Assembly: GCF_057098645.1 (NCBI RefSeq)
Contig: NZ_CM169472.1
Length of the DNA stretch: 64,000 bases
Direction: 5' to 3' (one strand)
In this document: piece after piece, positions 2,168 through 39,985 of the stretch
How positions within the stretch are numbered: the first letter of the stretch is position 1
Layout of the letters: each line of letters begins with the position of its first letter
The notes under the pieces: generated by a model
The model's database searches: none
Seen by the model: the letters and a program-made list of their open reading frames with translations, nothing else
What the model was told of the DNA's origin: nothing
Program-made: the position numbers and the translations under genes

Positions 2168-3112
2168 ATGACAAACTTCACGACCAGCACGCCGCATGAC
2201 GCATTATTTAAGTCCTTTCTCACGCACCCTGACACCGCGCGGGATTTTATGGAGATCCACTTACCCAAAGATTTACGTGAACTGTGAGATCTCGACAGCT
2301 TAAAACTGGAATCCGCCAGCTTTGTCGATGAAAAATTGCGGGCGCTACACTCCGATATTCTGTGGTCGGTAGAGACCCGTGAAGGTGATGGCTATATCTA
2401 TGTGGTGATTGAACATCAGAGCCGTGAGGATATTCATATAGCCTTTCGCCTGATGCGCTATTCCATGGCGGTGATGCAGCGCCATATCGAGCATGATAAA
2501 CGCCGGCCGTTACCGCTGGTCATCCCGATGCTGTTTTATCACGGTAGCCGTAGTCCTTATCCCTGGTCCCTGTGCTGGCTGGACGCATTTGCCGACCCGA
2601 CTACTGCACGGAAACTTTATACTGCAGCGTTCCCGCTGGTGGATGTCACTGTCGTGCCAGACGACGAGATTGTGCAGCACCGCAGAGTCGCCCTGTTGGA
2701 GTTGATCCAAAAGCATATTCGCCAGCGCGATCTAATGGGGCTTATTGATCAACTGGCAGTATTACTGGTTACAGGGTGCGCTAATGACAGCCAGATAACC
2801 GCGCTGTTAAATTACATTTTACTGGCTGGCGATGAAGCGAGTTTTAAAGAGTTTATCAGCGAACTAACCAGTCGAATGCCACAACACAGGGAGCGAATAA
2901 TGACGATTGCAGAGCGAATTCATAATGATGGATGGCTGTTAGGGATGGTAAAGGGGAAAGAAGAAGGGGAACAACGCCTCCTTAGATTGCTTTTGCAGAA
3001 CGGTGCGGATCCTGAATGGATACAACGATATACTGGACTTTCGGCAGAGCAAATGCAGGCATTAGAGCAACCCTTGCCTGAAAGCAAGCGCGATCCATGG
3101 ATCGAGTACTAA
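2168..3112 (+). pseudogene. rpnD: Rpn-family recombination-promoting nuclease (RpnD, yjiP/yjiQ), interrupted by in-frame TGA at 2285..2287
   Basis: ATG at 2168 gives [39 protein letters not shown] then TGA; same frame continues into ORF 2336..3112 (…[26 protein letters not shown]…), typical Rpn/transposase_31 family. K-12 carries the same locus as a pseudogene. Confidence 0.7.
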
Positions 3113-4942: not shown

Positions 4943-5107
4943 ATGGAATTTCACGAAAACAAAGCCAAAACGCCGTTTATCAGACTTGTGCAACTCTGGC
5001 AGGCGGTGAGGCGTTGGCGGCGGCAAATGCAGACCCGACGAGTGTTACAGCAGATGAGTGATGAGCGGTTGAGGGATATCGGGTTACGCAGGGAGGATGT
5101 GGAGTGA
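4943..5107 (+). CDS. yjiS: DUF1127 small protein YjiS
   Basis: 54-codon ORF MEFHENKAKTPFIRLVQLWQAVRRWRRQMQTRRVLQQMSDERLRDIGLRREDVE preceded by a GAGGAGG Shine-Dalgarno; below the ORF-track size cutoff. Confidence 0.65.
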   Translation: MEFHENKAKTPFIRLVQLWQAVRRWRRQMQTRRVLQQMSDERLRDIGLRREDVE

Positions 5108-5458
5108 ACTATGGGCGGCGTGTTGGCAAATGCTGCCTGTCTGCATTCAAAATTGCTACAAAATCCAACCATAAAAGTCGTTTACAACATATTTTTCTGA
5201 TTTACATACAGATAATGACCTGAGCTGTCTCACTGGGGGTCATCATCTATGCGTCCGGGGGATCTGTCACAAAAAGGAATAGAACAAAATCATCAGCGGT
5301 GAATAAAGCGATTCGTTTTAGATCACATTAATAAAATTTTTGTATCAAAAATTAGTTATCGCGCTCACAGTTCATAATGAAACAATTCTCTGCAAATAGA
5401 TAACCGAAGCTTCGTTGCTAGTATCAATTCGCTAATTATACACCTGCCAGAGGATACA

Positions 5459-7999
5459 ATGAAAAATAGAAATCGTATGATCGTGAACTGTGTTACTGCT
5501 TCCCTGATGTATTATTGGAGCTTACCTGCACTGGCTGAGCAGTCGTCAAGTGAGATAAAGATTGTTCGCGATGAATACGGCATGCCGCATATTTATGCCA
5601 ATGATACATGGCACCTATTTTATGGCTATGGCTATGTAGTAGCACAAGATCGCCTTTTTCAGATGGAAATGGCACGTCGCAGTACTCAAGGGACTGTCGC
5701 GGAAGTGCTTGGCAAAGATTTTGTGAAATTTGATAAAGATATCCGTCGTAACTACTGGCCGGATGCTATCCGGGCGCAAATTGCTGCCCTTTCCCCAGAG
5801 GATATGTCCATTCTGCAAGGCTACGCTGATGGAATGAATGCCTGGATTGATAAGGTAAATACCAATCCAGAGACGCTCTTACCAAAACAGTTTAATACAT
5901 TTGGCTTTACTCCTAAGCGCTGGGAACCGTTTGATGTCGCGATGATATTTGTGGGCACCATGGCAAACCGCTTCTCTGATAGCACTAGCGAAATTGATAA
6001 TCTGGCACTGCTAACGGCTTTAAAAGATAAATATGGTGTATCACAAGGCATGGCGGTATTTAATCAGTTGAAATGGCTGGTAAACCCATCAGCGCCAACC
6101 ACTATTGCCGTACAAGAGAGTAGCTACCCACTTAAATTTAATCAGCAAAACTCGCAAACAGCAGCTCTGTTGCCACGCTACGATTTACCTGCACCAATGC
6201 TTGACCGACCAGCAAAAGGGGCGGATGGCGCACTGCTGGCGTTAACAGCAGGGAAGAACCGGGAAACTATTGCTGCACAATTTGCACAGGGTGGTGCCAA
6301 TGGTCTGGCGGGGTATCCAACGACCAGCAATATGTGGGTGATCGGCAAAAGCAAAGCCCAGGATGCGAAAGCAATCATGGTAAATGGTCCGCAGTTTGGC
6401 TGGTATGCGCCTGCGTATACTTATGGTATTGGTCTGCACGGTGCTGGTTATGATGTCACTGGCAATACACCATTTGCCTATCCTGGGCTGGTTTTTGGTC
6501 ATAATGGTGTGATTTCCTGGGGATCAACGGCAGGTTTCGGCGATGATGTCGATATTTTTGCTGAACGGCTGTCGGCAGAGAAACCAGGCTACTACTTGCA
6601 TAATGGTAAGTGGGTGAAAATGTTAAGCCGTGAAGAAACCATTATGGTGAAAAATGGTCAGGCAGAGACCTTTACTGTCTGGCGCACGGTGCATGGCAAC
6701 ATTATCCAAACTGACCAGACGACACAAACGGCTTACGCTAAATCCCGCGCCTGGGATGGTAAAGAGGTGGCGTCTTTGCTGGCCTGGACTCATCAGATGA
6801 AGGCCAAAAATTGGCAGGAGTGGACACAGCAGGCAGCAAAACAAGCACTGACCATCAACTGGTACTATGCTGATGTGAACGGCAATATTGGTTATGTTCA
6901 TACTGGTGCTTATCCGGATCGTCAATCAGGCCATGATCCGCGATTACCCGTTCCTGGCACGGGAAAATGGGACTGGAAAGGGCTATTGCCTTTTGAAATG
7001 AACCCTAAGGTGTATAACCCCCAGTCGGGATATATTGCTAACTGGAACAATTCTCCCCAAAAAGATTATCCCGCTTCGGATCTGTTTGCCTTTTTGTGGG
7101 GTGGTGCAGATCGCGTTACGGAGATCGACCGACTGCTTGAGCAAAAGCCACGCTTAACTGCTGATCAGGCATGGGATGTTATTCGCCAAACCAGTCGTCA
7201 GGATCTTAACCTGAGGCTTTTTTTACCTACTCTGCAAGCAGCGACATCTGGTTTGACACAGAGCGATCCGCGCCGTCAGTTGGTGGATACATTAACACGT
7301 TGGGATGGCATCAATTTGCTTAATGATGATGGTAAAACCTGGCAGCAGCCAGGCTCTGCCATCCTGAACGTTTGGCTGACCAGTATGTTGAAGCGTACCG
7401 TAGTGGCTGTTGTACCTATGCCATTTGATAAGTGGTACAGCGCCAGTGGCTACGAAACAACCTAGGACGGTCCAACTGGTTCGCTGAATATAAGTGTTGG
7501 AGCAAAAATTTTGTATGAGGCGGTGCAGGGAGACAAATCACCAATCCCACAGGCGGTTGATCTGTTTGCCGGGAAATCACAGCAGGAGGTTGTGTTGGCT
7601 GCGCTGGAAGATACCTGGGAGACTCTTTCCAAACGCTATGGCAATAATGTGAGTAACTGGAAAACACCTGCAATGGCCTTAACGTTCCGGGCAAATAATT
7701 TCTTTGGCGTACCGCAGGCCGCAGCGGAAGAAGCGCGTCATCAGGCGGAGTATCAAAACCGTGGAACAGAAAACGATATGATTGTCTTCTCACCAACGAC
7801 AAGCGATCGTCCGGTGCTTGCCTGGGATGTGGTCGCACCCGGTCAGAGTGGATTTATTGCTCCCGATGGAACAGTTGATAAGCACTATGAAGATCAGCTG
7901 AAAATGTACGAAAATTTTGGTCGTAAGTCGCTCTGGTTAACGAAGCAGGATGTGGAGGCGCATAAGGAGTCGCAGGAAGTGTTGCACGTTCAGAGATAA
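5459..7999 (+). pseudogene. pga: Penicillin G acylase (amidase) precursor gene interrupted by a single in-frame TAG at 7463..7465
   Basis: ORF 5459..7465 (668 aa, [74 protein letters not shown]…) and ORF 7511..7999 (…LHVQR) are in the same frame separated only by TAG; the combined 846 codons match the E. coli penicillin G acylase precursor. Confidence 0.85.
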
Positions 8000-8012
8000 T
8001 TAAGCCCGAAAG

Positions 8013-8039
8013 CCCTCATATTCAGGAGGAATATGAGGG
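8013..8039. terminator. Stem-loop between convergent pga and yjiA (possible bidirectional terminator)
   Basis: Inverted repeat ccctcatattc-aggagg-aatatgaggg just after the pga stop; the flanking U-run is weak. Confidence 0.3.
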
Positions 8040-8076
8040 TGATAAAGTCTCAGGTATTGTGATGTTGGAGGGCTGG

Positions 8077-9033
8077 TTACTTTTTGAGTTCCGCAAACGC
8101 CGCCCGAATCTCTTCCTCCGGCAACTGAATCCCGATAAACACCATCGTGCTATGCGGTTTTTCATCGCCCCACGGGCGGTCCCAGTCGGCGCTGTAGAGG
8201 CGCTGGACGCCCTGGAACAGCAGGCGGTTAGGTTCGCCGTCAATCCACAGCATCCCTTTGTAACGCAGCAGTTTATCTGCCGATTCCAGCAGCAGGTTTT
8301 CCATCACCCGGGAAACTTCGCTGATATCTACCGGGTAATCCAGTTCCACCACAATCGACGAAATATCGTTTTGTTTATCCGCGATAAAGTGGAAACGCGG
8401 TTTGGTGCTGACGACGTTCTCTTCCAGCATAAAACCGTTGGTGTTGAACAGCAGGCCCAGGTCGATGTCGCCGTGGGTGACGGTGTAGACCGGTGCACGG
8501 GCGTTGATGCGCGCCAGGCGTTCGCGCAGTTTTTCTGCTTCGCCTGCGACGTCGGTTTTGGTCAGCAGAATACGGTCGGCGTAGCCAACCTGGGACTGGG
8601 CGATGGTGAACTGATTCATCTGCTCATCGGCATGTACCGCATCCACCAGCGCAATCACGCCGTCCAGCAGGTAACGCTGGCATAAAATCTCATGGGAGAA
8701 AAAGGTCTGAATAATCGGGCCGGGATCGGCCATGCCGGTGCATTCAATGACCAGACGATCGAACTGAATATTGCCCTTATCGAGATTATCCAGCAGGTCG
8801 AGTAGTGCGTCTTCCAGCTCGTTGGAGCGCGAACAGCAGATGCAGCCGTTGGTCAGCGTTTTGATCTGCGTGGCGCGGTCGCCAATCAATTGATCATCAA
8901 CGGAGACTTCGCCGAATTCGTTTTCAATCACGGCAATCTTGTAGCCGTGTTGTTCGTTAAGAATATGGCGCAGCAGGGTGGTTTTGCCCGCGCCTAAAAA
9001 ACCGGTGAGTAGGGTAACTGCAATCGGGTTCAT
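8077..9033 (-). CDS. yjiA: CobW/P47K-family GTPase YjiA
   Basis: Translation from internal Met MNPIAVTLLTGFLGAGKTTLLRHILNEQHGYKIAVIENEFGEVSVDDQLIGDR… with GCICC motif; 318 aa. Confidence 0.9.
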   Translation of the reverse strand: MNPIAVTLLTGFLGAGKTTLLRHILNEQHGYKIAVIENEFGEVSVDDQLIGDRATQIKTLTNGCICCSRSNELEDALLDLLDNLDKGNIQFDRLVIECTGMADPGPIIQTFFSHEILCQRYLLDGVIALVDAVHADEQMNQFTIAQSQVGYADRILLTKTDVAGEAEKLRERLARINARAPVYTVTHGDIDLGLLFNTNGFMLEENVVSTKPRFHFIADKQNDISSIVVELDYPVDISEVSRVMENLLLESADKLLRYKGMLWIDGEPNRLLFQGVQRLYSADWDRPWGDEKPHSTMVFIGIQLPEEEIRAAFAELKK

Positions 9034-9043
9034 GCTCTCTCCA

Positions 9044-9247
9044 TTAACAACAGCGCATACCGCCTTTACCATCGCCGCCGTAGCGCGCGTTCTGGCGTTC
9101 GCGGAAGAATTCTTCATAGCTCATGTACGGCTTGTCGGGATGGTTGGTCTTCATATGCTCGACGTAGTTGTCGTAGTCTGGAATGCCAATCAACATCTTT
9201 GCCGCCTGGCCGAGATATTTTTTTGCCTGTCCTAAGTTACCAAACAT
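9044..9247 (-). CDS. yjiX: DUF466 small protein YjiX
   Basis: 67-aa [51 protein letters not shown]…, directly downstream of btsT. Confidence 0.85.
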
Positions 9248-9296
9248 AGTTCACTCTGATAAGAACAAAGCCCCGCCGAAGCGGGGCTAAACACGG

Positions 9297-11447
9297 TTAG
9301 TGGTGCGAAGAGATCTTCACGCCGCCTTCCGGGATTGGAACGTACGGTGTTTCTTTGTCAGTACGTTTGTCGCTGTTACGCACCGCAAGCCACGTTTTGA
9401 AACCGTAGAAGATGATGCTGTACACCACAATCAGGAACAGAATACTCAGGCCTGCGTTGGTGTAGTTGTTCACAACGATGTGGTTCATGTTGGCAATCTG
9501 CTGCGCCGTCAGGTCAGTACCGTTAGCAATCTTCTCTTTGTACTGGCTTGCCATGTAGAAGAAGCCTTCCATCTGCGGGTTGGTGCTGAACAGTTTCAGG
9601 CCCAGCGCCCAGGTGGTGCAGATAAGCAGCCATACAGCCGGAACAACAGTTACCCAGATGTATTGGGTGCGCTTCATCTTAATCAGCACAACGGTACCCA
9701 GTACCAGCGCTACGGCTGCCAGCATCTGGTTGGAGATACCGAACAGCGGCCACAGGCTCTTAACGCCGCCCAGCGGATCGACCACGCCCTGATACAGCAG
9801 GTAGCCCCACAGACCCACACAGCCCGCAGTACCGATGATACCGGCAACCAGAGAGTCGGTTTTTTTCAGGAACGGGATGAAGTTACCCAGCAGATCTTGC
9901 AGCATAAAGCGGCCAGAACGGGTACCCGCATCCAGCGCGGTCAGGATGAACAGTGCTTCGAACAGAATACCGAAGTGATACCAGAAGCCCATGTCAGCCA
10001 TCGGCAGCACTTTGTGGAACACGTGAGCGATACCTACCGCCAGCGTCGGCGCACCACCTGCACGGTTCAGGACAGAAGGCTCACCAATGTCTTTCGCGGT
10101 TTGCAGGATCTGCTCTGGCGAAATCACGAAGCCCCAGGAGCTGACGGTCGCTGCCGCGTGTGCGGTAACGTCTTTCAGCTGCGCCATGATGATCGGCGCG
10201 TTCTCGCCACCCATTTCATGCAGGTTAGGCATGGTGATGCCAAGGCCCGCAGGCGGGGTGTTCATCGCGAAGTAAAGACCTGGTTCGATGATGGACGCAG
10301 CAACCAGCGCCATAATCGCCACGAAGGACTCCATCAGCATTGCGCCGTAGCCAATGAAACGCGCGTCGGTTTCGTTAGCCAGCAGTTTCGGCGTCGTACC
10401 GGAAGAGATCAGCGCGTGGAAGCCAGATACCGCACCACAGGCGATGGTGATGAACAGGAACGGGAACAGAGCGCCTTTCCACAGCGGGCCAGTACCGTCA
10501 ATGTACTGGGTCATCGCAGGCATTTTCAGTTCCGGGTTCAGCACCACGATACCCAGCGCCAGGCCGACGATAACGCCGATTTTCAGGAAGGTTGCCAGAT
10601 AGTCGCGCGGTGCGAGGATCAGCCACACCGGCAGCAATGCGGAAACAAACGCATAGCCAATCAGCGCGAAGGTAATGGTGGTGTCTTTAAAGGTCAGTGC
10701 CGGACCCCAGTACGGATCGTGAGCAATCACGCCACCGAAGTAGATAGAGGCAACCAGCAGCACGATACCAATAACAGAGACTTCACCCACACGCCCCGGA
10801 CGGATAAAGCGCATGTAGATACCCATAAACAGCGCAATCGGTACGGTTGAGCAAACGGTGAAGACACCCCACGGACTTTCGGCCAGGGCTTTAACCACAA
10901 TCAGCGCCAGAACGGCGAGGATGATGATCATGATTAAGAAACAGCCAAACAGCGCGATAGTCCCCGGTACTGGTCCCATCTCTTCTTTGATCATCTCACC
11001 GAGAGACGCGCCGTTACGGCGAGAGGAGATAAACAGCACCATAAAGTCCTGAACCGCACCGGCCAGCACGACCCCCGCCAGCAGCCACAGCGTGCCAGGC
11101 AGGTAGCCCATCTGTGCGGCGAGAACCGGACCGACCAGCGGACCAGCACCGGCGATAGCGGCGAAGTGGTGACCAAACAACACGTAACGGTTGGTCGGAA
11201 CGTAGTTCAGACCGTCGTTGTTAATAACCGCAGGCGTCGCGCGCGTGGGGTCGAGTTTCATCACCTTCTGGGCGATATACAAACTGTAGTAGCGATACGC
11301 CACCAGATACACCGACACAGAGGCGACCACGATCCACAGGGCGCTGACGTGCTCCCCCCGACGTAATGCAACTACCGCGAGGCAGAATGCACCGATGATT
11401 CCGAGAATCACCCAGGGTATGTGCTTGAATAGTTTTTTCGTATCCAT
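9297..11447 (-). CDS. btsT: CstA-family pyruvate/H+ symporter BtsT (YjiY)
   Basis: Translation from MDTKKLFKHIPWVILGIIGAFCLAVVALRRGEHVSALW…; 716 aa polytopic membrane protein. Confidence 0.9.
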   Translation of the reverse strand: MDTKKLFKHIPWVILGIIGAFCLAVVALRRGEHVSALWIVVASVSVYLVAYRYYSLYIAQKVMKLDPTRATPAVINNDGLNYVPTNRYVLFGHHFAAIAGAGPLVGPVLAAQMGYLPGTLWLLAGVVLAGAVQDFMVLFISSRRNGASLGEMIKEEMGPVPGTIALFGCFLIMIIILAVLALIVVKALAESPWGVFTVCSTVPIALFMGIYMRFIRPGRVGEVSVIGIVLLVASIYFGGVIAHDPYWGPALTFKDTTITFALIGYAFVSALLPVWLILAPRDYLATFLKIGVIVGLALGIVVLNPELKMPAMTQYIDGTGPLWKGALFPFLFITIACGAVSGFHALISSGTTPKLLANETDARFIGYGAMLMESFVAIMALVAASIIEPGLYFAMNTPPAGLGITMPNLHEMGGENAPIIMAQLKDVTAHAAATVSSWGFVISPEQILQTAKDIGEPSVLNRAGGAPTLAVGIAHVFHKVLPMADMGFWYHFGILFEALFILTALDAGTRSGRFMLQDLLGNFIPFLKKTDSLVAGIIGTAGCVGLWGYLLYQGVVDPLGGVKSLWPLFGISNQMLAAVALVLGTVVLIKMKRTQYIWVTVVPAVWLLICTTWALGLKLFSTNPQMEGFFYMASQYKEKIANGTDLTAQQIANMNHIVVNNYTNAGLSILFLIVVYSIIFYGFKTWLAVRNSDKRTDKETPYVPIPEGGVKISSHH

Positions 11448-11839
11448 AGTAAAACCTGGCATTTTACTCGTCGTCTTTTGGCTTACAGGTGCGGCAGCTG
11501 CGTTCGTTCACCCCTGTCACTTACTGTTGTAAGCTCCCGGTGATTCACTCACTTGCTGCCTTCCTGCAAACCAAAATCCATAGAGTAATTTGTTAATCAT
11601 AGGCCGAAGCCGTTCTAGGTTTGCGTTGCGTTTGAGGAGGTAAATTGACCGCTATCCTGCAGTGATGTTGCCAGAGATACGCGCGCGTAAAGTAAGGTAA
11701 ATAACTGAGTGGTTATTTTAGGGATGTAAGCGGTCAGGAATGGCGGTGAGCGGTTGGGCAAGAATTATTCATCGGGTGGATATGTGATTGAGATCACAAT
11801 AAAAATGCCCCTTCGACGAATACGTGAAGGGGCTGGAGC

Positions 11840-12352
11840 TTAAATCGCAGCTTCCATTTCCAGCATCACCGGATGGAAACGGCGTTTAAAGTAGATAAGT
11901 CCGTGACCTTCTGCACTGAGGATGATGTTTTTAATCTCCACCAGATACACCAGATGTGTGCCAATTGCCTGCACATCGCGGATCTCACCTTCAAGACTGG
12001 CCAGCGAACCTTTTAGCACCGGCTGCGCCAGCGGACCTTTTTGCCAGCATGAGAGGCTAAAACGCTCTTCCATCGCCATGCCTGTCATGCCCGCGAAGTG
12101 GCGTGCCATCAGTTCCTGCTCATGGTTGAGGACGTTGACGCACAACTTGCCGTTGCCCTGAAAAACCGGGTTCATCGCACTGTTGGCGTTAATGCACACC
12201 ATCAGCGATGGTGGTGTATCAGTGACCGAGCAGACGGCCGTTGCCGTAATCCCGCATTGTCCGGCGTCGCCCTCGGTGGTGATAATATTTACCGCTGCCG
12301 ACAGGCTGGCCATCGCGTCACGAAAGCGCAGGCGTTGTTCATCTAATTGCAT
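11840..12352 (-). CDS. hpaC: 4-hydroxyphenylacetate 3-monooxygenase reductase component (flavin reductase)
   Basis: 170-aa ORF MQLDEQRLRFRDAMASLSAAVNIITTEGDAGQCGITATAVCSVTDTPPSLMVCINANSAMNPVF…. Confidence 0.9.
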   Translation of the reverse strand: MQLDEQRLRFRDAMASLSAAVNIITTEGDAGQCGITATAVCSVTDTPPSLMVCINANSAMNPVFQGNGKLCVNVLNHEQELMARHFAGMTGMAMEERFSLSCWQKGPLAQPVLKGSLASLEGEIRDVQAIGTHLVYLVEIKNIILSAEGHGLIYFKRRFHPVMLEMEAAI

Positions 12353-12369
12353 CTTAACCTCCTGCTGCG

Positions 12370-13932
12370 TTATTTCAGCAGCTTATCCAGCATGTTGATA
12401 TCGTCGTTGTTGTGCAGGTGCGGCACAGTCCAGCCGTTCTGGTCGTATTCCGACAGGCAGCGATCAACCATCGCCATCATCTTGTCCATATTGCCGGAGC
12501 TTTGTGCCTGGCGCAGACACTGCAGGCGAATCTCATCCTGGCTACCGGAGTAGTTGATTTCATACAGTTCGTGACGACCACCAAATTCGCTGCCAATAGC
12601 ATCCCACATCAGTTTGAGGATCTTGATGCGCTGGACGTGATCCATACCGTTCGAACCGCGCACATACTTCGCCAGATACTGGTTGATCTGCGGGTTATTC
12701 AGGTCACGGGCACTGGAAGGGAGGTAGATCAGGCCACTGGTAACGTTGCGTTCGATAATGTTTTTGATCTTCGCGTAGGCCATTGGTGCCAGTACGCGAT
12801 AGGTTTGCAGTGCGGCATGATCCGGTAAATAAGCCCCGTTGACCCACGGCGTCGCTTCTGAACACATCGAGTCACTTAATGCCCAGAAGGTGTTGCGCCA
12901 CGCTACCACTTCACCGAGATCGGCCTGCACACCACGGAACTCCAGGGTGCCGGTACATTCGAGTGATTTTTTCAGCAGTGCCGTGATGAAGTCGAGTTTC
13001 ACTGCCAGGCGCACACAGGCTTGCAGCGGATACATACGGGCAAAACCGCCTTCCATCGTCCAGCGACGGCAGCGATCGAAATCGCGGTAGATCAGCACGT
13101 TTTCCCACGGGATCAGTACGTTATCCATCACCAGGATCGCATCGTTCTCATCGAAGCGGCTGGAGAGCGGGTAGTCGTACGGCGAGCCGGTAGCACCCGC
13201 GACCATCTCATAAGAGGCGCGGGAGATTAATTTCACGCCATCGGCATCCATTGGCGCAACGAACATCAGTGCGAAGTCCGGGTTTTCGCCCATCACTTGT
13301 GCCGAGCCGAAGCCAATCATGTTGTAGTGAGTCAGCGCCGAGTTGGTGGCAACCACTTTCGCACCGCTGACGATAATCCCGGCGTCAGTCTCTTTTTCCA
13401 GCTTGATGTAAACGTCTTTCACTTTATCGGTCGGCAAATGACGATCGATCGGTGGGTTAACAATCGCGTGGTTAAAGTAGAGGCCAGTTTCCTGAATACG
13501 GGTATACCAGTTACGGGCGTTCTGCTCGAACTGACCGTAAAAGCCCGGATTCGCGCCCAGTGCGCAACCGAAAGCGGCTTTGTAGTCTGGGGTACGGCCC
13601 ATCCAGCCATAGCTCAGGCGTGACCACTCAGCGATGGCATCGCGTTGCTGGCGCAGGTCGTCGGCACTTTTCGCCACGCGGAAGAATTTATGGGTATAGC
13701 CGCCGCTGCCGGTGTCGGTGCTCCAACACAGAGAGTCCTGCATCTCCGGTTTGTGCAGCGCGTCGTACAGTTGGGCAACAGACGCTGCCGCATTACGAAA
13801 TGCCGGATGAGTGGTGACGTCTTTCACTCGCTCGCCATAGATATAGATCTCGCGACCATCCTGCAGGCTTTTCAGATACTCTTCCCCGGTGAACGGACGT
13901 TGGGTACTGGCGCGGAAATCTTCTGGTTTCAT
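12370..13932 (-). CDS. hpaB: 4-hydroxyphenylacetate 3-monooxygenase oxygenase component
   Basis: 520-aa ORF MKPEDFRASTQRPFTGEEYLKSLQDGREIYIYGERVKDVTTHPAFRNAAAS…. Confidence 0.9.
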   Translation of the reverse strand: MKPEDFRASTQRPFTGEEYLKSLQDGREIYIYGERVKDVTTHPAFRNAAASVAQLYDALHKPEMQDSLCWSTDTGSGGYTHKFFRVAKSADDLRQQRDAIAEWSRLSYGWMGRTPDYKAAFGCALGANPGFYGQFEQNARNWYTRIQETGLYFNHAIVNPPIDRHLPTDKVKDVYIKLEKETDAGIIVSGAKVVATNSALTHYNMIGFGSAQVMGENPDFALMFVAPMDADGVKLISRASYEMVAGATGSPYDYPLSSRFDENDAILVMDNVLIPWENVLIYRDFDRCRRWTMEGGFARMYPLQACVRLAVKLDFITALLKKSLECTGTLEFRGVQADLGEVVAWRNTFWALSDSMCSEATPWVNGAYLPDHAALQTYRVLAPMAYAKIKNIIERNVTSGLIYLPSSARDLNNPQINQYLAKYVRGSNGMDHVQRIKILKLMWDAIGSEFGGRHELYEINYSGSQDEIRLQCLRQAQSSGNMDKMMAMVDRCLSEYDQNGWTVPHLHNNDDINMLDKLLK

Positions 13933-14182
13933 ATCGACCTCTACAGTATTAATCGGAATACAATTGTTAATTTTGTGTGTTGTTTTTGTTATTCAATTAA
14001 AGCTTGCAGGGGCGATTACGGGAAGAGACTTTTGGGACAATGGCTGGTACTTTTCAGGTCGGGTACGGTTTTGTGATCGAGGTCGCTTTTAGCTATTTTT
14101 GACGTTACTAAATCCCCTTGCTCCAGGCGGAGAAAGAGGAATAGCAGGTGATGCCTGGTTTCCCGTTAAGGCTAAGGGATTT

Positions 14183-15073
14183 TCACGTCACAGGTACTTT
14201 TTTGGCACGGTAAGCACTGGGCGAGCAACCGACTAAACGATTAAAAAAGCGCGCAAAATAAGCCGGATCCTTAAAACCGAGTTGCCAGGCAATATTGTTC
14301 ACGGCGTTATCAGAAAACAGCAGCAGCCGCTTGGCTTCTCGCAGCTGCCTGTCGAAAATCAACCGTTTTGGCGGACGGTTGGCAAAGCGGCGGCAGATGT
14401 CCGTGAGGCGTGATTCGGTGATATGCAGTTCGTTAGCGTAATCCGGTACTGTCCAGTGCTGATGAAAATGGCTTTCAATCAGCATATGAAAACGCTGGAA
14501 CAGTTTTAATTCTCCGCGCATTCCGCTGGCGGCATGGTCGTCGAGTTTTGCGTTACGCAGCAGTAGGGTGAACACTGCCTGTGCCAGGAGCGTCAGGGTG
14601 TGTTCCCGTCCAGGCAGTTGTTCCACCGATTCCCGTTCTATCAGTTGCCAATAGTGTTCCAGCGCCGCCAGTTCGTCGGGTTTATCTGCCAGTGACAGGC
14701 AAATCCCCGGCAGGCCGAAGGTTTCCCGAGTGCCTGGATAAAGAACTTCCAGCAGGGGCCAGATCAGATCTTCCCGTACCGTCAACACATGACCGTCGGC
14801 GTCAGACTCCGTAATAAACGCATGAGGTACTGACGGCGGCGTCAGGACAAACAGGGGCGCTTCCACCGAGTAGCGATGATCGTCAAGCTGTAGCTCAATC
14901 TGTCCGCTATTGAGGAAATGCATCTGAAAGTACTGTTCGTGGCGATGTGGCAGCATATGGCGGCCAAAAAATGCCGCCATGCGGGCGAAGGACTGATAAT
15001 GCACATCGTCCGTGCCCAGGCTTTCATCGTACTCTTTGCTGATATCAATATTGGCAATCTGACGGTCACACAT
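14183..15073 (-). CDS. hpaA: AraC-family activator of hpaBC
   Basis: 296-aa ORF with C-terminal AraC-type HTH (…AWQLGFKDPAYFARFFNRLVGCSPSAYR…); position between hpaX and hpaB. Confidence 0.85.
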   Translation of the reverse strand: MCDRQIANIDISKEYDESLGTDDVHYQSFARMAAFFGRHMLPHRHEQYFQMHFLNSGQIELQLDDHRYSVEAPLFVLTPPSVPHAFITESDADGHVLTVREDLIWPLLEVLYPGTRETFGLPGICLSLADKPDELAALEHYWQLIERESVEQLPGREHTLTLLAQAVFTLLLRNAKLDDHAASGMRGELKLFQRFHMLIESHFHQHWTVPDYANELHITESRLTDICRRFANRPPKRLIFDRQLREAKRLLLFSDNAVNNIAWQLGFKDPAYFARFFNRLVGCSPSAYRAKKVPVT

Positions 15074-15082
15074 CGTCGTTCC

Positions 15083-16459
15083 TTACGGGGTCGCTCGCGG
15101 ACGGGAGGACTGCATTGGAATTGCCCAGATAATCCCTGCACCAATCACCAGCAGCGCGGCAACAAACCACAATCCACTGTTAAAGCTGCCGGTCAGATCT
15201 TTCAACCAGCCGATCATAAACGGACTTAATGCTGAACCAATGTTGCCAGTGGCGTTGATCACCGCAATACCGATCGCTCGTGCCCGCAGGCTGATGGACT
15301 GATCCGGTGTTGTCCAGAAAATCGCCATTGCGCTGAATGATCCGGTCGAAGCCATAATAATCCCCAGCATCTGGATCATGTTGTGATCAGTTGCCGAAGC
15401 CAGTAACCAACCAGCGGCAGCGAACAAATAAGGAAGGGCGGTGTGATGCCTTCGTTCCTGGCGGCGATCTGAGTGACGGCTCCAGTAGATCATCCCGAGA
15501 ATGGTACAAATCTGCGGTACGGCGGCCAGCAGGCCGATGGTGATATTACTGCTGCCCTGATTAAAGCTTTGCAGGATCTGCGGTGTCCAGATGCTGATCG
15601 CACTAAGTGTGTTGGTCAGGCAGAAATACGCCAGGGTATACATCATCACCACCGGAGTGAAGATCTCCCGCCACATGCTGCGTTGTTGCATGGCGTGGTG
15701 GCTGATGGCTCCCTCTGGCTGAACCAGCGTCAGACGATCGTTATCCATCATCTCTTGCAGGCATTTTTTGTCTTCTTTCGTCAGCCAGTTAGCTTTGTCC
15801 GGTGAGTCATCAAGCCAGAACCATACCATGACGCCGAGTAATACCGACGGGAAGCCTTCCAGCAAAAACAGCCACTGCCAGCCTTTTAATGCCATTACGC
15901 CATCCAGCGACAAAATGTAGCCGGAAACGATCGATCCCAACGCTGTCGTTACCGGCATTGCCACCATAAACAAGGCGTTGGCACGGGCGCGGAAATAGGC
16001 CGGAAACCAGAAGGTTAAATAGAGCAGAATGCCAGGCAGAAAGCCGGCTTCGGTAATGCCAACCAGTATACGCAGTACGTATAAGCTGGTGGGGCCAGTG
16101 GCAAACATGGTGGCAGTAGAGGCGATGCCCCAAAGCACCATGATGGTGGCGATCCAGCGTCGCGCACCGACAATACTCAGCATAATGTTGCTGGGAATGC
16201 CGAAGATGACATAAGCGGCATAGAACAGGGTGGTAGCGAGGCCAAACATGGTGGCGCTCAGACCGAGGTCGCGTCCCATAGTTAGTCCGGCAAAACCAAT
16301 GTTGATGCGATCAAGGAACGAGAAGATAAACAGCACGAACAGAAAGACGATCAGGCGGCGAAATAGCTTCTTAATAACCGCCTGTTGTCCGGCAGTCAGC
16401 GCTTTATGCTGATTCGCCGGATCGATACTCTCCGGTATGGCAGGTGAGGTGTCGCTCAT
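15083..16459 (-). CDS. hpaX: MFS 4-hydroxyphenylacetate transporter
   Basis: ORF 15083..16519; translation from MSDTSPAIPESIDPANQHKALTAGQQAVIKKLFRRL…; 458 aa, 12-TM MFS. Confidence 0.85.
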   Translation of the reverse strand: MSDTSPAIPESIDPANQHKALTAGQQAVIKKLFRRLIVFLFVLFIFSFLDRINIGFAGLTMGRDLGLSATMFGLATTLFYAAYVIFGIPSNIMLSIVGARRWIATIMVLWGIASTATMFATGPTSLYVLRILVGITEAGFLPGILLYLTFWFPAYFRARANALFMVAMPVTTALGSIVSGYILSLDGVMALKGWQWLFLLEGFPSVLLGVMVWFWLDDSPDKANWLTKEDKKCLQEMMDNDRLTLVQPEGAISHHAMQQRSMWREIFTPVVMMYTLAYFCLTNTLSAISIWTPQILQSFNQGSSNITIGLLAAVPQICTILGMIYWSRHSDRRQERRHHTALPYLFAAAGWLLASATDHNMIQMLGIIMASTGSFSAMAIFWTTPDQSISLRARAIGIAVINATGNIGSALSPFMIGWLKDLTGSFNSGLWFVAALLVIGAGIIWAIPMQSSRPRATP

Positions 16460-16504
16460 TTTTCTTCCTCTAATGGGATTTTTGTAGGGTACGACAAGGT
16501 TTAT

Positions 16505-16632
<128 letters not shown>

Positions 16633-16633
16633 A

Positions 16634-17422
16634 TTAATACACGCCGGGCTTAATCGCTGTAGCCTGCGCGCCAAACCGTGCTGCCAGCGCTTCGGCGGCG
16701 CGGGCGAGCAGGGTGGTGTCAACGCCGACGGCGACAAACAGCGCGCCCAGTTCCAGATAGCGTTTTGCCAGTTGCTCATTGGCGATCAGGATCCCCGGCG
16801 CCTTACCCGCTTCGCGGATCTGCACGATCGCCTGCTCAATCGCGGCCTGCACTTCCGGGTGTTGCGGATTACCGGCGTAACCCATATCGGCGCTCAGATC
16901 CGCTGGGCCGATAAACACGCCGTCGACTCCTTCCACGTCCAGAATCTGCGGTAAGTTCTTCATTGCCTCACGGGTTTCGATCTGCACCAGCACGCACATT
17001 TGATCGTTGGCTTTTTGCAGGTAATCAGGAATGCGATTCCAGCGCGAGGCGCGAGCCAGCGCACTGCCCACACCGCGAATACCGGCGGGGGGATAACGGG
17101 TGGCGCGTACCGCTTCACGGGCTTCGTCGGCGTTTTGTACCATCGGCACCAGTAAGGTTTGTGTGCCGACATCCAGCAGTTGTTTGATTTGCACCGGATC
17201 GTTCCACGACGGACGTACTACCGGCTGGCTGGGGTAGGGCGCAATCGCCTGTAGTTGGGTGAGCACGGTTTGCACGTTATTCGGCGCGTGCTCACCGTCG
17301 ATCAATAACCAGTCGAATCCTGCTCCGGCCAGTAACTCTGCGCTGTAGCTGCTACTCAGCCCCAGCCATAATCCGATCTGCGGGCGGCCTGCTTTCAGCG
17401 CCGCTTTAAAACTGTTTTCCAT
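16634..17422 (-). CDS. hpaI: 2,4-dihydroxyhept-2-ene-1,7-dioate (HpaI) aldolase
   Basis: Translation from [48 protein letters not shown]…; 262 aa. Confidence 0.85.
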
Positions 17423-17432
17423 CGTTCTCTCC

Positions 17433-18236
17433 TTAAACAAAGCGGCAGCTAATGGAGCCCATGTTGCCGTAATCGACGTGGAAGGTGTCGCCCTTACGCG
17501 CCGGAACCGGGCGGGTAAACGAACCGCCGAGAATGATTTGCCCGGCTTCCAGTTGTACGTCATACGGTGCGAGTTTGTTCGCCAGCCAGGCCACGCCGTT
17601 TGCCGGATGATTCAGCACACCAGCGGCGACGCCGGTTTCTTCAATCACGCCATTGCGATACATCAGGGCGGAGATCCAACGCAGATCCAGCTCGTCAGGT
17701 TTGATCGGACGACCACCGAGGATCACCCCGGCATTGGCGGCGTTATCAGAAATGGTGTCGAACACTTTGCGCGGGCGCTGGGTTTCCGGATCGATGTTGT
17801 GGCAGCGGGCGTCGATCAGCTCCAGCGCCGGGATCACATAGTCCGTGGCGTTGTAAACGTCGAACAGCGTGCAGTTTGGTCCACGCAGCGGTTTTGCCAG
17901 CACGAAAGCCAGCTCCACTTCAATGCGCGGCACGATAAAGCGATCGGTCGGGATATCGCTGCCATCGTGGAAGAACATGTCATCCAGCAGGGCACCGTAA
18001 TCCGGCTCGCTGATTTGTGAGCTGGCCTGCATAGCTTTCGAGGTCAGGCCGATTTTGTGGCCTTTCAGCGTACGGCCTTCGGCGATTTTCAGGCGAACCC
18101 ATTCGCGCTGCACGGCGTAGGCGTCTTCGATGGTGATCTCGGGGTAATCCAGGGAGATCGCGCGGATCTGTTCGCGCTGTTTTTCTGCCTGATCCAGACG
18201 CTGGGCGATCAGGGTGTGGGTGTGTTTATCGAACAT
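17433..18236 (-). CDS. hpaH: 2-oxo-hept-3-ene-1,7-dioate hydratase
   Basis: Translation from [46 protein letters not shown]…; 267 aa. Confidence 0.85.
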
Positions 18237-18303
18237 AGCGATATCCTGTGGCATTGCCGGATGCGGCAGCGCCTTATCATCCGGCCTGGAAGCTGGTGCA
18301 AAT

Positions 18304-18684
18304 TTATTTAAACAACGCGTGTACGTTGTTCTGTTTGAAATTCAACGTCGGGTGCAGCTCTGCAATCTCAAATGAAAGCGCCAGGTAACGGCTCTCCATC
18401 AGTGAGGCGAAGTGCGTTTTAATCAGATCAAACAGCATTTCGCCCACTTCCTGACGGCTTTCCAGACTGCGTCCGCTGCCGATTTTTAGCGTCATATGCA
18501 CAAAGGCGTAATCGTGCTTGCCATCAGCCATTTGCCAGGTATCGATCCAGTGCGCCCGGCTACGTATTCCCCCAAGCGGAAAAATCCCCGTTGCCGCCAG
18601 TGCAGTGTTAACACTGGCAAACAGCTCAGGTAAGCGGGCTTCTTCACGAATATTTTCAGTACATTCCACGATAAAGTGCGGCAT
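18304..18684 (-). CDS. hpaF: 5-carboxymethyl-2-hydroxymuconate isomerase
   Basis: 126-aa [49 protein letters not shown]…. Confidence 0.85.
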
Positions 18685-18693
18685 AAAACGTCC

Positions 18694-19545
18694 TTACGCG
18701 GGCAGCGGGAAAACAGCGTTAACCTGACCGGTGCCAGAGCTTGGGAACAGCTCGGTAATAAACTCCACCTTGCCGTCGTATTTATCCCAGCCGAGCATCC
18801 CCAGCAGCATCACCGTGTCGTGCATATTGCCTTCGCCGTAGCAGTAGTCGGCGTACTCCGGCAGCATATTGCAAAACTCTTTGAACTGGCCTTCGCGCCA
18901 CAGCTTCACCACACGCTCGTCCATCTGGCGGTCGAACTCGCGGGTGTAGCTGTTCATCCCTTCTTCCGCACGCTGATCGTCAATAAAGCGGTGCGATAAC
19001 GAACCGCTGGCAAGGACCGCCACGGTGCCGTCGTACTGTTCGATCGCTTTCAGAATCGCTTCGCCCAGCTTGCGGCTGTCGGCAAAATCGTGAACCGTGC
19101 AGAAAGCCGAAATGGAGACCACTTTGAAGTGCTTGTCTTCATTCATGTAGCGCATCGGTACCAGCGTGCCGTACTCCAGTTTCAGGCTGGGAATGTTGTG
19201 CGCTTTCGCCCGCACGCCGAGTTTTATTGCTTCATCGGCAATTAGCTGCCCCAACTCCGGGTTGCCTTCGTAGTTGTAGGTCATGTCGCGAATAAAGTGC
19301 GGCAGCTCGTTGCTGGTGTAGACGCCTTCAAAATGGTCTGCACAGTTGATGTGATAAGCACTGTTGACCAGCCAGTGGGTATCGAAAACGATAATGGTAT
19401 CGACGCCCATTTCCCGGCAACGCTTGCTGATCTCTTTATGTCCGTCGATCGCACCCTGGCGACAACCGTGGTTTTTTCCTGGTAGTTCAGAGAGATACAT
19501 CGACGGTACGTGCGTGATCTTGGCGGCTAACGCTAACTTACCCAT
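18694..19545 (-). CDS. hpaD: 3,4-dihydroxyphenylacetate 2,3-dioxygenase
   Basis: 283-aa ORF MGKLALAAKITHVPSMYLSELPGKNHGCRQGAIDGHKEISKRCREMGVDTIIVFDTHW…. Confidence 0.9.
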   Translation of the reverse strand: MGKLALAAKITHVPSMYLSELPGKNHGCRQGAIDGHKEISKRCREMGVDTIIVFDTHWLVNSAYHINCADHFEGVYTSNELPHFIRDMTYNYEGNPELGQLIADEAIKLGVRAKAHNIPSLKLEYGTLVPMRYMNEDKHFKVVSISAFCTVHDFADSRKLGEAILKAIEQYDGTVAVLASGSLSHRFIDDQRAEEGMNSYTREFDRQMDERVVKLWREGQFKEFCNMLPEYADYCYGEGNMHDTVMLLGMLGWDKYDGKVEFITELFPSSGTGQVNAVFPLPA

Positions 19546-19546
19546 A

Positions 19547-21013
19547 TCAGACTCCCCATTTCGGAATTGGATGGTCGCCCATGGAAATGCAGACGTTCTT
19601 CATTTCCGCGAACACTTCGAAGCTGTACTCACCGCCTTCACGCCCGGTGCCGGAGGCTTTTACGCCGCCAAACGGCTGGCGCAGGTCGCGCACGTTCTGG
19701 GTGTTGACGAACACCATGCCTGCTTCAATGCCACGCGCCAGGCGTAACACTTTGCTGACATCCTGTGTCCAGATGTACGACGCGAGGCCGTACTCCACGT
19801 CGTTTGCCAGGCGTAAGCCTTCGGCTTCATCTTTAAACGGCAGCAGGCAGGCGACCGGCCCGAAAATCTCTTCCTGGGCAACGCGCATACGGTTATCTAC
19901 GTCCGCCAGCACCGTTGGGCGCAGGAAGTTGCCGCCTTTCAGGTGCGCAGGCAGGTCGGACGGTTTATCCGGACCGCCCGCCAGCAGGGTTGCGCCTTCT
20001 TCAATGCCTAGACGGATATAGCCGGAGACTTTTTCCCAGTGCTGCTGGCTGATAAGAGCCCCAACCTGGGTGTTCGGATCGTTCGGATCGCCCACGCGCA
20101 GACGGTTGGCGCGTTCGGCAAAGCGTTTAACGAATTCTGGATAGATGCTCTGTTGAATAAAAATGCGCGAACCGGCGGTGCAGCGTTCGCCGTTGATTGA
20201 GAAGATGGTGAACAGGGCAGCGTCCAGCGCACGTTCAATATCGGCATCTTCAAAAATCAGCACCGGCGATTTACCGCCCAGTTCCATGGAGTATTTTTTC
20301 AGCCCGGCGTTTTTCATGATGTTGCGCCCGGTGGCCGTACCGCCGGTGAACGACACGGCACGTACGTCATGATGACGAACCAGCGCATCCCCTGCGGTTG
20401 CGCCGTAGCCCTGTACCACGTTCAGCACGCCCGCCGGAATACCGGCTTCCAGCGCCAGCTCACCCAGGCGGTCAGCGGTCAGCGGGGAGAGTTCCGACAT
20501 CTTCAGCACCGCGGTATTGCCCAGAGCCAGACACGGCGCGACCTTCCATGTGGCGGTCATAAACGGCACGTTCCACGGCGATACCAGCGCACAAACGCCT
20601 ACCGGTTGCACCAGCGTGTAGTTGAGCATCTTGTCGTCAACCGGATAGGTCTTGCCGTTCATCTGCTGGCAGACTTCCGCGAAAAATTCAAAGTTGTGAG
20701 AAGCGCGTGGGATCAACACATTTTTGGTCTGATGGATCGGCAGGCCCGTGTCCGCGGTTTCCATCGCGGCGATCTCAGGCACGTTCTGGTCGATCAGATC
20801 GCCCAGACGGCGCATCAGGCGCGCACGCTCTTTCATCGGCAGATTGGCCCATTTCGGGAACGCCTCTTTCGCTGCCGCTACCGCCTGATTGATCTCCGCT
20901 TCACCGCCAGAGGCCACATCCGCCAGCACTTCACCCGTTGCCGGATTGGTGGTCTGGAAGTAGTCGTTACCTGCGACATTTTTGCCGTTGATCCAATGAT
21001 TTACTTTTTTCAT
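19547..21013 (-). CDS. hpaE: 5-carboxymethyl-2-hydroxymuconate semialdehyde dehydrogenase
   Basis: 488-aa aldehyde dehydrogenase family ORF (…ELGGKSP…, catalytic Cys context GERCTAG). Confidence 0.9.
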   Translation of the reverse strand: MKKVNHWINGKNVAGNDYFQTTNPATGEVLADVASGGEAEINQAVAAAKEAFPKWANLPMKERARLMRRLGDLIDQNVPEIAAMETADTGLPIHQTKNVLIPRASHNFEFFAEVCQQMNGKTYPVDDKMLNYTLVQPVGVCALVSPWNVPFMTATWKVAPCLALGNTAVLKMSELSPLTADRLGELALEAGIPAGVLNVVQGYGATAGDALVRHHDVRAVSFTGGTATGRNIMKNAGLKKYSMELGGKSPVLIFEDADIERALDAALFTIFSINGERCTAGSRIFIQQSIYPEFVKRFAERANRLRVGDPNDPNTQVGALISQQHWEKVSGYIRLGIEEGATLLAGGPDKPSDLPAHLKGGNFLRPTVLADVDNRMRVAQEEIFGPVACLLPFKDEAEGLRLANDVEYGLASYIWTQDVSKVLRLARGIEAGMVFVNTQNVRDLRQPFGGVKASGTGREGGEYSFEVFAEMKNVCISMGDHPIPKWGV

Positions 21014-22299
21014 TTCGCTGTATCCTCACTCACAATTCGGTTCACCAGGCGGCCCACGCCTTCTACTTCCACCACTACTTCATCGCCAGGCACCACGTCA
21101 GATAAGCCTTTTGGTGTGCCGGTGGCGATCATGTCGCCCGGATTCAGGGTCATAAATTCGCTTAAGTAGGCGATCAGGAAGGGCACGCTGAAGATCAGAT
21201 CGGCGGTGGTGCCTTGCTGGCGTAACTCGCCGTTGACGAAGGTGCGAAGGGTCAGATTATGCGGGTCCGGGATCGCCTCTTTCGGCACGATGGTTGAAAG
21301 CATCGGCGTCAGTCCGTCGCGGCTTTTTACCCGCAGGTTAGGGCGGTAGTAGTTTTCCAGATAGTCGCGAATGGCGTAGTCGTTACACACGGTGTAGCCC
21401 GCGACATAATCCATGGCATCGGCTTCGCTGACGTTACGCGCCTGTTTGCCAATAACTACCACCAGCTCCGCTTCATAGTGCATGTATTCAATATTGTTTG
21501 GACGCACGGAGGTCTGGTTATCGCCAGTGAGGGTATTTGGCGCTTTCAGGAACACCAGCGGTTCTTCCGGTGGCTTAAATTCCAGTTCGCTGGCGTGGTC
21601 GGCGTAGTTCAGGCCGAGGGCAAACAGCGTACCGTGCGGGTGTGGCAGCGTTGGGAAGCTCTTGCGCGTGGTCACTTCACGTTCGTCCACTACCGGATTT
21701 TCCAGCGGCAGGAAACCTTCTGCGAGAACACGCACGCGATCGCCTGGCTGTATTTCCACGCGCGCCTGTGGCGTGCCGAGCAGAATGGCATCGCCTGGGT
21801 TCAGCGTGGCAAATTCGCTCAGGGCGCTCAGCAGCTGTGCGGCGTTACGTTGTAAATCGGCGGTGTTCCAGTGATCGGCAGGACGCCCGTTGATCTCGGT
21901 ATAGATAGTCAGATTATCGACATTGCTGAGAGCCACGGTTTCGCCAATGGGGCAGAATCCATCACGACATTTTGCTTTGATTGCCGGACGGTAAAAGCTC
22001 TCTTCCGGCAGGCTGACGTCGTTAGCCAGCGCATATCCGGCGATGTACTCTGCCGCATCTTCTTCACGTACTTTCGTCGCCGTTTTTCCCACAATCAGCG
22101 CAACTGTCGCACCGCTCAGTACCTTTTCACCCTGTGGAAAGGGAATCGGTTCACCGCAACCAATCACCGTATTGCGCGGTTTAATAAACCAGACCGCAGT
22201 TTTAGGCGGGGCTTTGTAGGGGGATTGCTGGAACGCTTCCTGCCAGGCATAAAGTTGGCTGCGATGGTTCAATGCTACGGCGAAGATAGTGCCTTTCAT
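21010..22299 (-). CDS. hpaG: Bifunctional 5-oxopent-3-ene-1,2,5-tricarboxylate decarboxylase / 2-hydroxyhepta-2,4-diene-1,7-dioate isomerase
   Basis: Translation from MKGTIFAVALNHRSQLYAWQEAFQQSPYKAPPKTAVWFIKPRNTV…; duplicated FAH-fold; 429 aa. Confidence 0.85.
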   Translation of the reverse strand: MKGTIFAVALNHRSQLYAWQEAFQQSPYKAPPKTAVWFIKPRNTVIGCGEPIPFPQGEKVLSGATVALIVGKTATKVREEDAAEYIAGYALANDVSLPEESFYRPAIKAKCRDGFCPIGETVALSNVDNLTIYTEINGRPADHWNTADLQRNAAQLLSALSEFATLNPGDAILLGTPQARVEIQPGDRVRVLAEGFLPLENPVVDEREVTTRKSFPTLPHPHGTLFALGLNYADHASELEFKPPEEPLVFLKAPNTLTGDNQTSVRPNNIEYMHYEAELVVVIGKQARNVSEADAMDYVAGYTVCNDYAIRDYLENYYRPNLRVKSRDGLTPMLSTIVPKEAIPDPHNLTLRTFVNGELRQQGTTADLIFSVPFLIAYLSEFMTLNPGDMIATGTPKGLSDVVPGDEVVVEVEGVGRLVNRIVSEDTAK

Positions 22300-22570
22300 T
22301 ACCACTCCTCGGATTCGATCATCTTGATCATTAATATGTTAATGATTGCTTTTATTCCCGATTGCGTAGTTTGGCAAAAGTAAGTGATATAAATGTGATC
22401 TAATTAACAAACTATTTACATTTAAAGATAATAAAATATTAAATATCAGTAAGTTAATAAAATATCATCAATTTTGATAAAATCAGGAATTGCGAGGACA
22501 GCTCAGTCCCGGTAACGTGACGATTAACTGTTTCTATATTAATGATTTTGAATTTTTCAGGGGAAAGATA

Positions 22571-23017
22571 ATGCACGACTCACTAACTATTGCGTTGCTC
22601 CAGGCGCGAGAAGCGGCGATGAGTTATTTTCGCCCAATCGTTAAACGGCATAATTTGACTGAGCAACAGTGGCGCATCGTGCGTATTCTGGCGGAAAGCC
22701 CATCAATGGATTTTCACGATCTGGCGTATCGCGCCTGCATTTTGCGCCCAAGCCTGACCGGGATCCTCACGCGGATGGAACGCGACGGTTTAGTGTTGCG
22801 ATTAAAGCCGATCAATGATCAGCGGAAGCTCTATATCTCGCTAACCAAAGAGGGGCAGGCGCTGTATAACCGCGCCCAGACACAGATTGAAGAAGCCTAT
22901 CGGCAGATTGAAGCTCAGTTTACTGCCGAGAAAATGCAACAGTTAACCCATCTGTTAGAGGAATTTATTGCTCTGGGCAATTCCCGACAAGAAGACATCC
23001 CGGGCGATAATGAATAA
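22571..23017 (+). CDS. hpaR: MarR-family repressor of the hpa meta-cleavage operon
   Basis: Translation from MHDSLTIALLQAREAAMSYFRPIVKRHNLTEQQWRIVRILAESPSMDFHDLA…; divergent from hpaG. Confidence 0.85.
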   Translation: MHDSLTIALLQAREAAMSYFRPIVKRHNLTEQQWRIVRILAESPSMDFHDLAYRACILRPSLTGILTRMERDGLVLRLKPINDQRKLYISLTKEGQALYNRAQTQIEEAYRQIEAQFTAEKMQQLTHLLEEFIALGNSRQEDIPGDNE

Positions 23018-34867: not shown

Positions 34868-35302
34868 TCAGGAAATGAAGTTCAGCCCCTGCTTTAACAC
34901 CAGATCGCAGGCTTTGGTTTTCACCTTTTCTGCCAGCGGAGTCGTTCCGATGTTATCCAGATTGAGTTGCTGACCATCTTTGGTTTTCAGCAAACCCTGA
35001 ATACCGTCCAGATAGTTGGTGTCTTCTTTTTGCTCTTCACTGTTCAGGCCCAGCTTTTCCAGCACCTGATTCTTGATGTTTTCGGCATCGGTTACCGACG
35101 CCAGCTTTTGCTTCGCGCAGTATTGCAGAATGCCTGCGGCATTGTTCATGTTATCTGCGCTTAAGGCCTGGTTTCCGCTGCTAAGCAAGTTAGTTAATGA
35201 CGCGAGCGACCAACCGCCTTCCTGTGTCGTGCTGTTTTGGTTGCCAAGTTCGCTGGCGGCAATGGCACAGCACAGAAGATGTTTAACAGTTTTCATCATC
35301 AT
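34868..35302 (-). CDS. yjjA: DUF2501 secreted protein YjjA
   Basis: 144-aa ORF with signal peptide MMMKTVKHLLCCAIAASELG; position upstream of dnaC. Confidence 0.7.
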   Translation of the reverse strand: MMMKTVKHLLCCAIAASELGNQNSTTQEGGWSLASLTNLLSSGNQALSADNMNNAAGILQYCAKQKLASVTDAENIKNQVLEKLGLNSEEQKEDTNYLDGIQGLLKTKDGQQLNLDNIGTTPLAEKVKTKACDLVLKQGLNFIS

Positions 35303-35347
35303 TACTCAAGGTGGAATTGTGTCGCAGTATACCGCCAGAAACGGGGA

Positions 35348-36085: not shown

Positions 36086-36087
36086 CG

Positions 36088-39948: not shown

Positions 39949-39985
39949 TCCGCATGATGCCGGGTTTACTTCCCCGGCAGTGCTT

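Follow-up and report, generated by a model that had tools for sequence, protein, structure and literature searches.

A penicillin G acylase allele of the yjiS–yjiA slot with a premature stop codon in O145:H28-like Escherichia coli

In Escherichia coli W, the immigration control region carries pac, the gene for penicillin G acylase (PGA), in place of hsdMRS-mcrBC-mrr, and the strain also carries the hpa cluster (Archer 2011, PMC3032704); for that strain, both the arrangement and its interpretation as permissiveness towards foreign DNA are already in print. The region was defined by the 'empty site' of E. coli C, described by Sibley and Raleigh (2004) and summarized in a 2025 EcoSal Plus review (PMC12707154) that puts the share of enterobacterial immigration control regions with a Type I system at only 36%, names 'penicillinase' among the non-defence cargo and attaches a model of recombinational cassette exchange to the yjiS–yjiA locus. 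Here we describe positions 5108–8076 of a 64-kb stretch of E. coli DNA (contig NZ_CM169472.1; hereafter, the window), in which pga (pac) is the sole gene between yjiS and yjiA and is interrupted by an in-frame stop codon.

We are confident in reading this interval as the pga allele of the yjiS–yjiA slot (that is, the immigration control region or defence hotspot 36), obtained through cassette exchange, carried on a haplotype with hpa and holding an inactivated pga. In this scenario, the Type I and Type IV restriction genes of other strains would have given way to a lone metabolic gene under its own control region of PaaX/CRP type, and a change from CAG to TAG at residue 380 of the beta chain would have inactivated it in an O145:H28-like sublineage. 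Given that pga holds a nonsense mutation, the slot now encodes no restriction and very probably no active acylase.

The slot and its junctions

Comparison with K-12 by BLASTN revealed homology that ends at position 5107 and resumes at 8091. Between the yjiS and yjiA stop codons, K-12 MG1655 holds 15,993 bp annotated as yjiT, yjiV', mcrC, mcrB, symE/symR, hsdS, hsdM, hsdR and mrr; the slot of the window measures 2,969 bp. No remnant of a K-12 or O157:H7 slot gene was detected in 5108–8090 (BLASTN), no sequence of hsd, mcr, mrr or symE was found in the interval (BLASTN against the K-12 and O157:H7 slots, PADLOC, Rfam and a check of short open reading frames (ORFs)), and neither Type I hsdRMS nor Type IV genes (Mrr, McrBC, GmrSD) lie between the anchors according to ORFs, BLASTN and PADLOC, the last of which also returned no defence-family match for PGA or for an Rpn-like ORF in the left flank. 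The absence of the K-12 restriction genes from this site, proposed in the preliminary description, is thereby borne out.

The arrangement is widespread. In a survey of 5,426 complete E. coli genomes, pga was present in 1,072 (1,071 chromosomal copies and 1 on a plasmid), and contiguous yjiS-pga-yjiA was found in 1,067 (19.7%); as slot copies number 1,067 against 1,072 in total, pga is hardly ever found elsewhere. At least 80% of the K-12 slot content was recovered from 538 genomes (9.9%), the listed matches including K-12 laboratory derivatives, and 2,923 had any match to that content, which in sampled matches was mostly symE only. The remaining 2,503 (46%) gave no megablast match to K-12 slot content, and the combination of pga with restriction genes in the slot was nearly absent. 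The preliminary description had suggested that the lack of the K-12 genes could make the strain unusually permissive for foreign DNA; with the pga allele at 19.7%, K-12 content at 9.9% and 46% of genomes free of any K-12 slot-gene match, the word 'unusually' is not supported. That the window was mis-assembled here is a negligible possibility, because 1,067 complete genomes share the same contiguous order, and the window is collinear over 46 kb (a 63-bp deletion excepted) with the near-identical chromosome of the O145:H28 strain RM13514, whose RefSeq annotation agrees with the ORF list of the window on gene content and positions. The features are as follows.

4943–5107, plus strand: yjiS (DUF1127), left anchor of the variable slot (RM13514 RefSeq annotation, BLASTN breakpoints)
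5108–5458, plus strand: upstream region of pga, 351 bp, AT-rich and non-coding (composition, 40–45% GC)
5459–7999, plus strand: pga (pac), PGA precursor (translation, PDB matches)
7463–7465, plus strand: premature TAG inside pga (translation, comparison with RM13514)
8000–8076: spacer between pga and yjiA, 77 bp
8013–8039: hairpin with a perfect 11-bp stem, CCCTCATATTC / GAATATGAGGG, and a 5-nt loop (inverted-repeat search)
8077–9033, minus strand: yjiA (CobW-family GTPase), right anchor, convergent with pga (NCBIfam NF008578, 682.7 bits)
9044–11447, minus strand: yjiX and btsT, core genes dividing the pga slot from the hpa insertion (RM13514 annotation; 98% identity to K-12)
11840–23017, minus strand (hpaR on the plus strand): hpa cluster for 4-hydroxyphenylacetate catabolism (annotation, insertion limits)

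To delimit the cassette, three unrelated slot alleles were compared, namely those of the window (pga), K-12 (Type IA hsd, mcrBC, mrr) and O157:H7 FRIK2069. On the left, all three diverge right after the yjiS TGA (5105–5107). On the right, they reconverge in the 3′ end of yjiA, of which the last 14 nt (8077–8090) differ in the pga allele, so that the YjiA C terminus reads AELKK in the window versus AGLRK in K-12 and O157:H7; these allele-specific nucleotides place the right junction inside the yjiA 3′ end. The shared anchors and junctions uphold the earlier proposal that pga occupies the same variable slot as the K-12 genes. As O157:H7, the sister lineage, holds different content here (GmrSD-like genes, symE and Type IB hsdSMR, with no hpa cluster nearby), the slot has been swapped within phylogroup E.

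The ORF list and a repeat search yielded no integrase, transposase, terminal inverted repeats or target duplication within the cassette or next to it; the only repeats at its ends were short two-copy matches of chance quality, such as a 26-nt direct repeat of 77% identity at 5079/7932, which does not bracket it. Given junctions common to unrelated alleles and the lack of mobile-element marks, the data point to cassette replacement, in which slot alleles would be exchanged as whole cassettes through homologous recombination in the conserved flanks, with no mobile element involved. The competing idea that pga was, or was carried by, a mobile element that inserted here and deleted the restriction genes might draw on the GC content of the cassette (40–49%, below that of the flanks) and on the patchy, accessory distribution of pga, including the one plasmid copy; however, junctions that match those of restriction-gene alleles to the base indicate replacement of one allele by another rather than insertion followed by deletion, and together with the missing mobility marks they leave this idea highly improbable.

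Outside the cassette, the left flank contains mdtM, an Rpn-family pseudogene and yjiR, and the right flank contains yjiX, btsT, the hpa cluster and tsr. The Rpn-family gene (rpnD-like recombination-promoting nuclease, 2168–3112, plus strand) has an internal stop, with a longest ORF at 2336–3112; it is a pseudogene in K-12 too and is frameshifted in O157:H7. The hairpin at 8013–8039, positioned between the convergent pga and yjiA, may serve as a bidirectional terminator, although it is not followed by a T-run and was not called by a T-run-based terminator scan. A 73-bp segment 3′ of btsT (11497–11569) gives an 86% inverted match to the K-12 hsdM-hsdR intergenic region and is probably a repetitive extragenic palindrome (REP)-type repeat rather than an hsd remnant.

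A nonsense codon in pga and its control region

The encoded protein was matched to solved PGA structures by phmmer (1GK9, 1PNK, 1E3A and others; E-values 0 to 1e-264), and PF01804 (Ntn hydrolase) was assigned to the called genes of the allele. The precursor comprises a signal peptide (residues 1–26), the alpha chain (27–235), a spacer (236–289) and the beta chain starting at Ser290. Ser290 (SNMWVIG) aligns with beta residue 1 of the solved chains; the N-terminal nucleophile, which autoproteolytic removal of the spacer would expose, is therefore present. In the PDB alignment, residues 27–235 correspond to the alpha chain and 290–668 to beta 1–379 of E. coli PGA; the 177 codons that follow the stop correspond to beta 381–557, with two substitutions relative to the solved chain. 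The stop itself, an in-frame TAG at 7463–7465, is codon 669 and replaces Gln beta-380, leaving a longest ORF of 668 residues (5459–7465). A complete 557-residue beta chain in one frame is consequently lacking, as the last 178 residues are removed. The preliminary description had treated pga as an intact gene; it is instead a nonsense pseudogene. Because a third of the beta chain is gone from a single compact fold, it is very unlikely that a processed and active acylase is still formed.

The TAG is the only base of pga that differs from RM13514 (C to T, converting CAG to TAG), and the T is missing from all 1,072 complete genomes that carry pga; none of the 5,426 complete genomes matches the interval exactly. 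A single-base difference that is absent from complete RefSeq genomes could raise the suspicion of a sequencing or assembly error in an otherwise intact gene. However, an identical 668-residue product is called in approximately 25 independent blocks of public NCBI and Logan assemblies, including GCA_029357705.1 and several different SRA/ENA runs, and the flanks of these blocks show 0–2 mismatches to the window over 6.5–17.5 kb (the divergent end of one contig excepted). Many other differences between the window and RM13514 are, furthermore, common to outgroups and look like natural polymorphism. An error is thus scarcely credible. Given the recurrence of the same product with matching flanks, the TAG allele is a real, rare pseudogene allele and identifies an uncommon sublineage; by comparison, 3,173 blocks contain the intact form of the protein.

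As for the background of this sublineage, the best matches of the window are all Shiga-toxin-producing E. coli of type O145:H28 or O145:NM. Over window bases 1–35,260, 15 single-base differences separate it from RM13514. Of these, 14 fall in the stretch that was compared with two outgroup genomes; 7 of the 14 had alleles common to the outgroups (8 of 14 against UTME-3), and since half are shared in this way, they look like natural polymorphism rather than error. The window comes from a natural relative of sequenced O145:H28 strains. Beyond 35,260, the alignment with RM13514 passes through a 63-bp deletion and a divergent stretch reaching 46,052 to a different prophage. The deletion lies within yjjA (34868–35299, minus strand), is in frame at approximately 35251–35260 relative to the closest O145 complete genomes and is bounded by GCTGGCGGC direct repeats. 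YjjA is thereby shortened from 165 to 144 residues, and the 21 lost residues cover some of the predicted signal peptide. Across 35251–46052 (opgB to yjjG), identity to RM13514 falls from 99.96% to 99.39% (64 mismatches in 10.8 kb), which suggests a recombination tract adjoining the prophage integration site.

Upstream of the broken coding region, the control region looks intact. Positions 5108–5458 have no K-12 homology by BLASTN and no Rfam match (SymR included), and their only small ORFs are of chance length (20–39 codons). PGA acts as a scavenger enzyme on esters and amides of phenylacetate-type acids and is under the control of PaaX, for which the published operator is TGATTC-N27-GAATCA (PMC9493321). 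A candidate PaaX-operator-like site, CGATTC-N27-GTATCA, is present at 5309–5347 with two mismatches and exactly the published spacing; such matches occur at approximately 0.36 per kb in the window if spacings of 24–30 are allowed. A motif scan placed a CRP-like candidate site at 5354–5369. A scan with the sigma-70 consensus found no plus-strand promoter upstream of pga, which would fit a weak CRP-dependent promoter and says little by itself. From these motifs, we infer a regulatory function for the putative PaaX and CRP sites.

Linkage to hpa and the consequences for restriction

The hpa insertion lies between btsT and tsr and encodes hpaC, B, A, X, I, H, F, D, E, G and R, with hpaR at the far end; it is absent from both K-12 and O157:H7. 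A query running from pga to hpaB (at least 80% covered, both ends required) was recovered from 1,071 complete genomes, and a query from yjiA to hpaB from 2,065, which leaves approximately 994 with hpa but no pga. As the 1,071 joint matches equal the 1,071 chromosomal copies of pga, every chromosomal copy resides in an hpa-positive genome. The pga allele travels with the neighbouring hpa cluster as one haplotype, in keeping with the known functional tie between the two, as PGA frees phenylacetate-type acids from amides and esters.

A stronger version of this idea holds that metabolism was swapped for defence, that is, that an approximately 18-kb pga–hpa haplotype straddling yjiA-yjiX-btsT is co-selected and excludes restriction genes. 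If so, a cell gaining an aromatic-acid scavenging module by recombination would automatically lose the restriction cassette at this site, and the TAG allele would be a sign that the module is starting to decay in a host-adapted O145:H28 sublineage. We regard this extension as speculative and on balance doubtful.

Several points also weigh against our preferred reading of an inactivated pga allele gained by cassette exchange and linked to hpa. The two loci are physically linked, 3.4 kb apart, and this proximity together with clonal structure could account for part or much of the association between pga and hpa without any selection. Recombinational exchange is itself something that we infer from shared junctions and absent mobility marks. 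Finally, the known catalytic and calcium-binding residues of PGA presumably all precede the stop, going by 1PNK-type structures.

It has also been proposed, in the preliminary description as for E. coli W (PMC3032704), that loss of the K-12-type immigration control genes leaves such a strain unusually open to foreign DNA. Consistent with this proposal, yjiS and yjiA have no restriction gene between them, and the single-molecule real-time (SMRT) methylomes of RM13514 and RM13516 show only GATC (Dam) methylation, plus CTGCAG in RM13514, and neither contains a Type I motif (PMC3893438). Beside yecA, RM13514 has a second Type I locus, which is decayed: IS600 splits hsdR, and hsdM carries an internal stop and is truncated next to an IS3 element, although hsdS is intact. 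This decay is in line with a published methylome that lacks Type I methylation. Against it, approximately 20% of complete E. coli genomes carry the pga allele, and Type I systems occupy only the 36% of enterobacterial regions cited above. RM13514 also has a BsuBI/PstI-type restriction–modification system on its Stx2a prophage, the source of its CTGCAG methylation (PMC3893438), and a DUF262/HEC-06-type protein beside yecA, and the window itself encodes a prophage anti-phage dCTP deaminase (46244–47851, minus strand; NCBIfam NF041025, 464.7 bits against a cut-off of 400; PADLOC dCTPase, 547 bits) and a DNA methyltransferase. Unusual permissiveness is therefore unlikely, and the lineage looks poor in classical restriction rather than defenceless, with a slot state that is common.

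Some of these elements belong to larger structures. In RM13514, positions 2368500–2395000 form the yecA-side defence island, in which the DUF262/HEC-06-like candidate defence protein accompanies the decayed Type I genes. In the window, a lambdoid prophage extends from 44.8 to 64 kb, with its integrase at 44853–46091 (plus strand) downstream of yjjG, and differs from the same-site prophage of RM13514 from approximately 46,050 onwards. Its late region encodes the methyltransferase (Type II-like, 350 residues, 60496–61548, plus strand), which is probably an orphan phage methylase; in the related CFSAN061770 prophage, no adjacent endonuclease is annotated beside the corresponding gene. Its early region (54059–54247, plus strand) contains adjoining Rfam hits, one to isrK (63.7 bits) and one to C4 antisense RNA (82.8 bits).

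Comparison with known alleles

For E. coli W, slot variability and the pga allele are textbook matters that the 2025 review also treats, and our observations have little wider significance. The additions made here are small, comprising a lineage-specific nonsense mutation, the full nesting of pga in hpa-positive genomes and junctions shared to the base. In practical terms, O145:H28-type Shiga-toxin strains are among the roughly 20% of E. coli with the pga allele and no restriction genes at this site, whereas the sister O157:H7 keeps Type IB and GmrSD-like genes; a functional annotation of pga is not warranted in the TAG sublineage, which could be recognized by the amber single-nucleotide polymorphism at 7463 together with the 63-bp deletion in yjjA.

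The closest described allele is that of E. coli W (ATCC 9637/ATCC 11105), which likewise has one gene, pga, between yjiS and yjiA, no restriction genes and hpa nearby, and the PGA of the window is nearly identical to the ATCC 11105 enzyme (PDB 1GK9, 1PNK). W-derived strains are the industrial source of active PGA, and unlike theirs, the pga of the window has a nonsense codon at beta-380; the hosts differ as well, W being a laboratory-safe soil isolate and the window deriving from an O145:H28-like, phage-rich chromosome. With the K-12 allele, that of the window shares the slot, the anchors and the junction positions, yet no gene content at all, with 2,969 bp that lack a defence function set against 15,993 bp. 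The O157:H7 allele, from the sister lineage, has the same anchors and junctions, but retains GmrSD-like genes, symE, Type IB EcoAI-family hsdSMR and DUF262/HNH genes, and is accompanied by neither pga nor hpa. In being a slot that is free of restriction enzymes, the allele of the window also resembles that of E. coli C.

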